DNA of 63,998 nt, the filler included, from Jimgerdemannia flammicorona (taxonomy: Eukaryota), in NCBI GenBank assembly GCA_003990765.1. It is 3 parts of 3 records of this genome, joined end to end, with 100 filler letters (N's around TTAATTAATTAA, not from the genome) between each part and the next. Parts side by side here need not be neighbours in the genome. Positions count along the whole stretch, not along the records: positions 1 to 21,466 come from RBNJ01001444.1; 2 more parts are not named here. One strand, 5' to 3'. Below are positions 6,795-7,895 of this stretch, in pieces; position 1 is the stretch's first letter; every line of letters starts with the position of its first letter. Position numbers and translations under genes: made by a program. Under the pieces are notes generated by a model. The model did no database searches and was not told where the DNA came from. It saw only the letters and a program-made list of their open reading frames with translations.

Positions 6795-7895
6795 CTAGAG
6801 GAAATAGTACCCTTTGTCTGCAGCGGGCAAATCTTGCTGGGTTAAGATTTCTTCTTCATCATACCTCTCCTCAAAAGGGGGAAGTGCCGGCCAAGAGGTG
6901 AGGGGGTAGAAAAGTGGCCAGTCATCTTCAACAACATTCTCCAACCCTTGAACAGCTTGAATGTAGACAGAGAACTGGTAGACTCTCTGTTGCTCCTCTT
7001 CTTCTTCTGAAAACTCGTCAGTTTCAGTGTCAGAGGGGGTTTCTTCAGGGGCAGGGTCTTGGAGTTCTTGGGCTTCCTCTTCAAAGACAGGGACTTCTTG
7101 GGCTTCTTCTTGATTCGGTTTCCAAATGATGAGATGTGAATTGTGGCTGACAGAGTGGTGGGTGATTGGGGTAGCTCCAATGGGTGCTTCTATGGTAATG
7201 GGTGGACCTTCAAATATCTCCATAAGACTCATTAGGTGACCTTGATGGTTGTCTCGGAGTGGGGTAGTGTGGAAACCTGACTGAGTAGGTTCGGTTTGTT
7301 GGCTTCCTATGGCGATGTGGTTGCTGCCAGTAGAGTTGGCTACTTCAGATTCTATCCAGTCAGCATCTTCAGTTGAAAGGCGGGAGAGGCTGCTAGCCGT
7401 TACTCCTTGCAAGTGTGCTATGGTCCAGGGAATATGGCAGAAGATTTGGTGGACACGGAGAGCTCTCTTGATTAGCCAGCTAGTGGTTATCAATTCAGTA
7501 ATGAGGCCTTCCCGGTCATCTTCTTGAGTCTCATTGCAAAGGCGGTGTCCGATTTCGTAGTCATGCCAGAGGGTCATTCGTTCAGTAGTATCTTTGAGCT
7601 GTTGGGTCATTATATACTGGTAGTTGATGAAGTGTCCAAGGTCCTCGGTGTAGAAGTTCAAGTGTTCAGAAGTATCTGGGCACCAGATGGCCTTCTTGAT
7701 AGCTTCAAAGATCAGAGTCTTTGGGCCAGGCAAAGGGGTAGAGCAGCGGGAGGTCTGGTTAGATCGGCGAATGGGAGGCATTGTGTAGTGGGTACTTGGT
7801 TCTTTGGTGCTGATCCCTGAGGTGGAGTATGGTTCCTTAAATAACGTGGTCTTCATTTTGGCTCGGATCATCTTGTCTTCTTTTGGGATGATCAC
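6795..7895 (-). CDS. Uninterrupted ORF of unknown function inside the 3' LTR (U3) of family A
   Basis: 366-aa ORF, open although gag-pol is broken. The paralogous ORF in the other LTR is also open. Globular N-half and acidic/Pro-rich C-half. Confidence 0.7.
   Translation of the reverse strand: MIIPKEDKMIRAKMKTTLFKEPYSTSGISTKEPSTHYTMPPIRRSNQTSRCSTPLPGPKTLIFEAIKKAIWCPDTSEHLNFYTEDLGHFINYQYIMTQQLKDTTERMTLWHDYEIGHRLCNETQEDDREGLITELITTSWLIKRALRVHQIFCHIPWTIAHLQGVTASSLSRLSTEDADWIESEVANSTGSNHIAIGSQQTEPTQSGFHTTPLRDNHQGHLMSLMEIFEGPPITIEAPIGATPITHHSVSHNSHLIIWKPNQEEAQEVPVFEEEAQELQDPAPEETPSDTETDEFSEEEEEQQRVYQFSVYIQAVQGLENVVEDDWPLFYPLTSWPALPPFEERYDEEEILTQQDLPAADKGYYFL

Follow-up and report, generated by a model that had tools for sequence, protein, structure and literature searches.

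Long terminal repeats (LTRs) are normally regarded as non-coding control regions. Among the closest described systems to the one presented here is sag of mouse mammary tumour virus (MMTV), a superantigen gene situated in the unique 3′ (U3) region of a betaretrovirus LTR; its product, Sag, is a type II membrane glycoprotein. The spumavirus genes tas/bel and bet and the lentivirus gene nef are 3′ accessory genes that overlap U3 and start upstream of the polypurine tract (PPT). In foamy-virus Tas, a targeting domain is joined to an acidic activation domain at the C-terminus. Here we describe long open reading frames (ORFs) that lie inside the LTRs of two Ty3/Gypsy retrotransposon families, A and B, in a 63,998-nt stretch of DNA from Jimgerdemannia flammicorona (GenBank assembly GCA_003990765.1). 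We call this stretch the window; it is made of three parts of three records joined by filler, and all positions below count along its whole length. Each family probably carries a protein-coding accessory gene in U3, the two genes being very distant homologues within a wider orphan protein family.

The LTR ORFs resemble sag in several respects. They are sense-oriented, about 320 codons long and wholly contained in U3, they lie upstream of the LTR promoter, they are present in both LTRs, and they form the 3′-terminal gene. They differ from sag in that their proteins are without a membrane-like segment (maximum 19-residue hydropathy 1.19), in residing in Ty3/Gypsy elements, and in belonging to an orphan family of their own. 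The likeness is thus one of genomic placement only. Like the LTR ORFs, tas/bel, bet and nef are positioned between pol/env and R as regulatory genes, and the layout of Tas is the one suggested below for the LTR-ORF protein. However, those genes only run into U3, whereas the A and B ORFs lie wholly downstream of the PPT. The likeness is again one of placement and layout. The term 'LTR ORF' in the literature refers almost always to MMTV sag.

Extra ORFs are also known from other LTR retrotransposons. In plants, the additional ORFs (aORFs) of Retrosat2, RIRE3 and RIRE8 (ORF0) and of Retand or Tat elements (3′ ORFs) are likewise lineage-specific, have no known function and evolve faster than pol; for Retrosat2, a Ka of 0.26 is given for ORF0 versus 0.08 for ORF1 (PMC3485330). 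The plant aORFs differ in being internal. ORF0 lies upstream of gag-pol (PMC3485330), and the Retand ORFs are reported to sit downstream of pol, before the 3′ LTR (PMC11963269). A review of plant aORFs (PMC7264820) contains none of six phrasings that would place an ORF in, within or overlapping an LTR. Bdelloid rotifers offer a different likeness, in that the same extra ORF is reported from distant retroelement families of one genome (PMC5408684); the hosts there are animals, compared with a fungus-like soil organism here. For LTR retrotransposons other than retroviruses, a limited literature search, which is not proof of absence, turned up no gene contained entirely in the LTR. We take the LTR ORFs to be retroelement accessory ORFs in an unusual position that belong to a new protein family.

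Results

Both LTR families contain a long sense ORF in U3

The LTR-A ORF is intact in one copy. In the 3′ LTR of element A it is fully open over 328 amino acids from an ATG (6795..7781, minus strand; MPPIRR...), and the frame stays open back to a GTG at 7895, giving 366 codons (6795–7895, minus strand). The ATG at 7781 is the likely start, because close and distant relatives begin at the same methionine. This ATG lies 207 nt in from the LTR edge; 436 nt separate the stop codon from the downstream TATA box GTATAAATA (6351..6359, minus strand), which is followed about 20 nt later by AATAAA. An 82-nt tandem repeat, present 2.5 times (6544..6746, minus strand), occupies part of the interval between stop codon and TATA box and forms an enhancer-like part of U3. 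The ORF is therefore wholly within U3, in sense orientation and downstream of the PPT. The copy in the 5′ LTR (15105..16088, minus strand) has decayed: codon 6 is an in-frame stop, and a 3-nt deletion leaves the frame intact.

The element that carries these LTRs spans 5642..16295 on the minus strand and has the complete Ty3/Gypsy order LTR-PBS-gag-PR-RT-IN-PPT-LTR (PBS, primer-binding site; PR, protease; RT, reverse transcriptase; IN, integrase). Self-BLAST of the window delimits a 3′ LTR of 2,347 nt (5642..7988, minus strand) and a 5′ LTR of 2,345 nt (13951..16295, minus strand) that are 93.4% identical. All four hallmarks of an LTR retrotransposon are present: direct LTRs with TG...CA ends (TGTGA...GTCACA on the minus strand), a target-site duplication (ATATA(T) on each flank), a PBS (TGGGGGCTCAACTGGG, 13932..13947, minus strand, 3 nt past the 5′ LTR) and a PPT (GCAAGGGGCAGA, 7989..8000, minus strand, abutting the 3′ LTR). 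The PBS is putatively Pro-type, going by the tRNA 3′ end. Pfam domains follow on the minus strand in the order zf-CCHC (11902–12207), protease (11116–11832), RVT_1 (10129–10443) and rve (7989–9198). The ends, target-site duplication, PBS, PPT and Gypsy-order genes together identify the repeats as true LTRs. Element A is a complete but dead Ty3/Gypsy insertion, because its gag-pol genes are full of in-frame stops. Between its two LTRs there are 148 transitions and only 3 transversions, the decay being almost purely C-to-T and G-to-A. The copies show many R-to-C/H/W and Q-to-stop changes, along with strong C-to-T (CpG-type) decay on repeats.

The LTRs of family B are about 2 kb long and occur in at least five places of the window by self-BLAST, two of these (B4 and B5) being partial. 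B1 (33533..35522, minus strand) is preceded by a PPT (35524–35533) and an integrase-SH3-chromodomain region, and B2 (37105..39176, minus strand) by a PPT at 39178–39187. B3 (27829..31085, plus strand) belongs to a plus-strand element as its 5′ LTR. A 1.18-kb insertion (27997–29175) interrupts B3, which is followed by an iMet-like PBS (TGGTAGCAGCAG, 31089–31100) and then by gag and a dUTPase domain. B4 (19951..21430, minus strand) is 5′-truncated and retains ORF codons ∼85–365 (20583–21430), heavily decayed. The true 5′ edge of the LTR is TGTAAGTGCAC, directly after the PPT AAGAAGGGGAGAG and about 155 nt outside the self-BLAST boundary. Family B shows TG...CA ends, PPT and PBS, and its copies are nested or truncated.

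Every window copy of the LTR-B ORF is damaged. In B1 (34200..35354, minus strand) the ORF has 384 codons from an upstream ATG or 365 from the MTTEIY start at 35297, the two in-frame ATGs being 57 nt (19 codons) apart, with three in-frame stops and no frameshift. B2 (37792..38945, minus strand; 38888..37792 from MTTEIY) has two stops and one 1-nt deletion. B3 (29254..30406, plus strand; shorter version 29311..30406) has stops and two 1-nt deletions. In B2, 231 nt separate the ATG from the LTR edge; in B1, the stop codon falls 188 nt before the TATA box GTATAAATA, copies of which lie at 30595–30603 (plus strand), 34004–34012 and 37595–37603 (both minus strand). A TATA-like sequence, CATATATAC, is found about 80 nt upstream of the LTR-B ORF. 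An earlier reading of the window, made from its sequence alone and called here the sequence-only reading, had placed long sense ORFs in U3 of both LTRs, at 6795–7895 in A and at 34200–35298 (B1) and 37791–38888 (B2) in B. Our mapping bears out this placement, though only the A copy in the 3′ LTR is open and the B copies have decayed.

The core promoter string GTATAAATA(A/C)CC is common to families A and B despite their otherwise unalignable LTRs. The TATA string itself matches seven times in the window against 1.04 expected.

The sequence-only reading had also separated the two families by PBS and chromodomain, and both distinctions are recovered. The PBS resembles the Pro type in A and the iMet type in B. 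The pol gene of family B upstream of LTR B2 (39603..42827, minus strand) encodes reverse transcriptase, RNase H, integrase, SH3 and chromodomain, with the Pfam order RVT_1, RNase H, Integrase_H2C2, rve, SH3; its chromodomain (PF00385, E=4.7e-18) marks family B as a chromovirus. In element A a three-frame read-through of 7989–9200 detected only rve and rve_3 and no chromodomain, in a region so decayed that the signal may have been lost.

The LTR-B ORF was under purifying selection

The U3 sense strand is strongly C/A-rich, a composition that favours open frames. We therefore took as the null for ORF length the longest ORF in six frames of 1,000 dinucleotide-preserving shuffles of each LTR. The longest ORF of the element A 3′ LTR has 366 codons (shuffle mean 116, maximum 233) and that of B1 has 322 (mean 93, maximum 186), so that 0/1,000 shuffles were as long in either case. 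The same was true of the A 5′ LTR, and the more broken B2 was matched by 3/1,000. The other two sense frames of the LTR-A ORF region contain 17 and 20 stops.

Among the four independent B copies, codon positions 1, 2 and 3 hold 94, 42 and 133 variable sites with transitions (chi-square p=8e-11) and 9, 4 and 15 with transversions (p=0.039). By the Nei-Gojobori method (NG86), dN/dS over the six B pairs is 0.20–0.31 in the ORF frame, compared with 0.58–0.93 and 1.26–1.98 in the other frames. NG86 is biased under extreme transition bias, and we therefore built a context-matched permutation null in which the observed C-to-T/G-to-A changes were re-dealt within their site class (CpG or non-CpG, C or G). 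The ORF frame has 132 synonymous sites against 106.1 ± 5.2 expected (z=4.98, 0/2,000 permutations), and the other two frames give z=−2.5 and z=−4.6. The N-terminal half and the acidic tail each reach z=3.5 when taken separately (3/3,000 and 2/3,000).

Controls behave as they should. The integrase-chromodomain region of family B, a positive control, gives z=3.0 (6/2,000). Neutral results came from the two LTRs of one A element (z=−0.49), as expected since their differences are post-insertion decay only, and from the non-ORF parts of the A and B LTRs (|z| ≤1.01). While family B was active, purifying selection acted on the LTR-B ORF about as strongly as on pol. For family B, the dN/dS comparison across LTR copies, put forward in the sequence-only reading as a check, thus came out in favour of a gene.

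The A and B ORFs are probably homologous

The DNA of LTR A and LTR B shows no similarity (best E=1.6), in agreement with the sequence-only reading; the pol proteins of the two families are 32–43% identical by tblastx. At the level of protein profiles the two ORFs can be aligned. With distant A relatives included, HHalign gave a score of 31.4 (P=0.0018) over 125 colinear columns, among them all three colinear blocks named in the sequence-only reading, which are exactly those aligned by HHalign and HMMER. If A and B are homologous, the 19 codons upstream of MTTEIY in B should align with the N-terminus of A, and we therefore added them to the profile. The score rose from 31.4 to 36.3 (P=3.6e-4), and in both proteins the alignment now began at residue 3. 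When the A profile was made non-redundant (8 sequences), it scored 36.9 against B (P=2.4e-4, 145 columns). Column shuffles of B had means of 14.7–14.8 and a maximum of 26.4, with 0/500 reaching the real score, and reversed alignments scored 14–16.

The strongest single result for homology is the match of the A-family hidden Markov model (HMM) to P0008, a 128-residue metagenome protein that represents the undecayed B N-terminus. The match covers residues 8–125 (118 residues) with 17.7 bits (E=1e-7), and the best of the controls, 5,000 shuffles and the reversed sequence, has 9.8 bits. In the reciprocal direction, the B HMM finds the A relative P0011 at 8.7e-5 and the window A protein, from the 3′ LTR, at 2.8e-4. 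The tails share a second, short colinear motif (PLFYPLTSWPA in A, PLLCPPTSYPA in B). Identity between A and B is about 18%. On these sequence comparisons we consider the two ORFs probably homologous.

The ORFs belong to a wider family known from metagenomes

Word-indexed protein searches with A found a single cluster of six members (79% identity); with B they found two proteins, 59% and 83% identical. B1 and its relative P0007 agree in frame, stop position and tail motifs, and all gaps between them are in-frame. P0008 has the LTR-B ORF start and is open wherever, within its range, window copies have stops.

An exhaustive search of 1.84 billion representatives with the A-alignment HMM returned nine proteins at E≤1e-3, and cluster mates of these matches supplied longer versions. 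Five clearly separate lineages among them are P0010 (4e-22), P0011 (1e-21), P0013 (2e-16), P0016 (4e-7) and P0017 (4e-4). The distant A relatives are 25–34% identical to the window protein, share the MP... start and have an invariant D47, E76 and I77; the family motifs are DLGHF, W-H-x-Y-E-I-G-H-x-L, H-Q-I-F-R-H-x-P (continuing as HQIFRH-P--I) and FEGPPI. Translated non-coding DNA would not be alignable at 25–34% identity, and family A is therefore a real protein family. All family members found so far stem from JGI/IMG or ENA metagenome contigs, soil among them, and lack an NCBI or UniRef accession. The 5.8 billion and 1.84 billion proteins searched yielded no host-gene relative.

A third lineage is present in the window itself. 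A six-frame scan with the family HMM located a truncated, AT-decayed relic (MFQDIRR..., 17354..17638, plus strand; i-E=1.5e-18) whose closest relative is P0013.

We also looked for the corresponding DNA. Among pattern stretches from metagenome contigs (107 for A and 591 for B) and viral contigs (4 and 8), none was confirmed by tblastn as a match to the relatives. Parts of LTR A occur in 15 metagenome runs from soil or other sources (best share 0.21), and none of the runs listed with LTR A sequence is an RNA run. The variants from four metagenome runs over 5642–13950 (seven in the LTR-A ORF, among 40 of 649 rows) are too few for a codon-position test.

The predicted proteins are bipartite

In both families a near-neutral N-terminal domain of ∼120–190 residues is followed by a strongly acidic tail rich in proline and aromatic residues. 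The N-terminal domain is predicted to be all-helical in A and B (AlphaFold2, pLDDT ∼35; pLDDT, predicted local distance difference test). The tails have a net charge of −17 to −38 with 18–30% D/E and 9–14% proline, as the acidic, proline-rich tails of the sequence-only reading would have it. No membrane-like segment was found in five members (maximum Kyte-Doolittle mean over 19 residues 0.43–1.19), and a Sag- or Env-like protein was rejected because there is no hydrophobic segment. A duplication of gag was likewise rejected; neither the A nor the B HMM matches gag or pol in the six-frame window (E<0.01).

Other features of the window

Several further observations concern family B and its surroundings. 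Two dUTPase domains (PF00692) are present, at 33066–33494 (plus strand, E=4e-26) and 46890–47276 (minus strand, E=1e-6). The first shares its reading frame with the zinc knuckle of gag in the LTR-B3 element, and family B is therefore a dUTPase-carrying chromovirus. Twice, at 33533–40867 and 18424–21430 (minus strand), the 3′ part of a further family-B pol comes ∼100–170 nt after a family-B LTR, with different break points (the integrase core at 36999, H2C2 at 19784). Here chromodomain elements seem to have inserted into older copies in a nested fashion. The insertion that splits B3 (27997–29175) is 90% identical, in reverse orientation, to 51750–52927, with related repeats at 43289–44214 and 62223–63146; it probably represents a solo LTR from a different family. 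Runs of N (two pairs of 44 nt) lie at 21467–21566, where they truncate LTR B4, and at 43033–43132, on the 5′ side of the family-B pol.

Elsewhere, 1965–4917 consists of diverged, satellite-like internal repeats (70–79% identity, many offsets of ∼170–180 nt and multiples) with no Pfam matches. At 21600–23800 (plus strand) lies a host gene with a CBF/Mak21 domain (PF03914, E=6e-10), the only non-repeat gene noticed in the window; its ORF pieces are split by short gaps, which suggests short introns. The region 47900–51900 has an extreme GC skew (+0.43) and several ORFs of 90–205 residues on both strands, with no match to Pfam or to the LTR-ORF HMMs.

Discussion

We put the probability that families A and B each carry a protein-coding accessory gene in U3, as very distant homologues within a wider orphan family, at about 0.62. 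The central claim of the sequence-only reading, that two Gypsy families share a real accessory gene in this position, is supported by selection and by profile homology, the homology being probable, not proven.

A number of results weigh against this reading. Both genes are predictions from sequence. Selection at the DNA level was measured for family B only, the sole A pair being the two LTRs of one element, which gave a neutral result, and the metagenome proteins were ascertained for being open. An LTR location has been shown, among all family members, for families A and B only. Neither the ORFs nor 10 family members have a Pfam match above cut-off, a PDB profile search gave nothing below E=0.18, and the ESM Atlas held no usable match for A or B (recognition values of 1321 and 1328 are in the shuffled-sequence range). 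The AlphaFold models, built on shallow alignments, have low confidence (pLDDT 35.2 and 36.4), and the activity suggested below is read from composition. Homology, too, has results on the debit side. BLASTP between the A and B ORF proteins finds nothing (best E=6.9). HHalign with close relatives only gave P=0.085, on the block highlighted in the sequence-only reading. Enlarging the set to 22 sequences, a good many of which are fragmentary, brought the score down from 36.3 to 28.6 (P=4.6e-3; shuffle maximum 26.4), and HHalign's own calibrated probability is just 8–43%. The profile–profile comparison suggested in the sequence-only reading therefore has two sides: the alignments are colinear over 125–145 columns and nominally significant (P=2.4e-4 to 4.6e-3, 0/500 shuffles), but the calibrated probability stays at 8–43%.

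These last results are what would be expected if both ORFs were real genes of independent origin, similar in composition and secondary structure and not homologous. The negative BLASTP, the narrow profiles and the small excess of one profile version over the shuffle maximum would fit it, with no confident fold available for comparison. Against it stand the match of the A HMM to P0008, well above 5,001 composition-matched or reversed controls, the reciprocal HMM matches and the second colinear tail motif. Moreover, A and B align colinearly between residue 3 and residue ∼150, all the better once an independently predicted N-terminal extension is included, and the two ORFs begin at nearly equal distances from the LTR edge (207 versus 231 nt). 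We think an independent origin rather unlikely.

A second alternative is that a host gene or gene fragment was captured in U3 and swapped between families by template switching, possibly with no benefit to the element. Bdelloid rotifer LTR retrotransposons are reported to pick up extra ORFs that unrelated families share (PMC5408684), and the LTR-ORF proteins have no relative among known retroelement proteins. The search of billions of proteins turned up no host-gene relative either, however, and every member comes from a short metagenome contig. Selection in the ORF frame was as strong as in the family B integrase, and three lineages occur within one 64-kb window. A captured gene of this kind is quite unlikely.

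The ORF could also be a dead relic, a former internal third ORF engulfed by the LTR as the PPT moved, with the open A copy in the 3′ LTR a matter of luck. All B copies in the window are broken, the A copy in the 5′ LTR has a stop, and element A, its gag-pol full of stops, is dead in any case. Yet this decay is the ordinary C-to-T damage that follows insertion, as the ratio of transitions to transversions between the A LTRs illustrates, whereas variation between copies was filtered by selection in the ORF frame, and start codon, motifs and bipartite layout persist in relatives at 25–34% identity. We regard a relic as very unlikely. Finally, the notion that there is no gene at all, only a long frame left open by a C/A-rich sense strand that lowers stop-codon frequency, could appeal to overlapping ORFs of ∼110 residues in other frames, but is effectively refuted by the shuffles (matched in B2 alone), by the stops in the other sense frames of A, by the period-3 substitution pattern and by distant protein relatives down to E=4e-22.

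Given a shared U3 gene, its position has direct consequences. Reverse transcription copies everything between the PPT and R into both LTRs. A gene between PPT and R is therefore present in both LTRs of every insertion and, for the same reason, is the 3′-terminal cistron on the element RNA (gag-pol-PPT-ORF-promoter-R). Placing the ORF downstream of the PPT makes the LTRs 2–2.4 kb long and doubles the gene with each insertion.

How the gene might be expressed can be sketched in two ways. The message could be a subgenomic or spliced RNA; alternatively, transcription could begin close to the 5′ edge of the LTR and use the LTR's own poly(A) signal. Element A has a single GTRAGT, inside the LTR, and no convincing splice donor in its leader, and no joint linking the leader to the LTR-A ORF was found among fragmentary, single low-depth contigs from four metagenome runs over 5642–13950. 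In the second arrangement each LTR would be a self-contained gene, with a start near its 5′ edge (perhaps at the TATA-like CATATATAC in B), the ORF and its own poly(A) signal. By either route, the protein would act in trans for the element. Selection acted at the level of the element lineage, and the protein would therefore help replication.

As to function, we tentatively suggest, at clearly less than even odds, that the LTR-ORF protein is a transcription or chromatin regulator of its own LTR, in which a helical targeting domain is joined to an acidic, activation-type tail; such a protein would parallel the 3′ transactivators of retroviruses. A regulator is favoured because a helical domain followed by an acidic tail rich in aromatic residues and leucine is the design of many transcriptional activators. 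Adaptor roles of the protein, for example in RNA export or integration targeting, are alternatives.

If each LTR is a self-contained gene, even solo LTRs and 5′ LTRs would express a trans factor that activates or de-represses LTRs of their own family genome-wide. A regulator borne on the LTR would spread and persist independently of gag-pol, and would be common to several Gypsy lineages of a soil fungus; we consider this scenario as a whole unlikely. The LTR-ORF protein is a concrete candidate for coping with host silencing in a genome whose repeats undergo heavy C-to-T decay.

A selected gene wholly within U3 has until now been a textbook peculiarity of one retrovirus, through MMTV sag. Repeats such as LTRs are usually masked before gene prediction, which may explain why family members are seen only in unmasked metagenome gene calls. 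The length of an LTR, here 2–2.4 kb, can reflect coding content, and solo LTRs may retain coding potential. More broadly, accessory genes at the 3′ end, downstream of the PPT, may be a recurrent strategy of retroelements.

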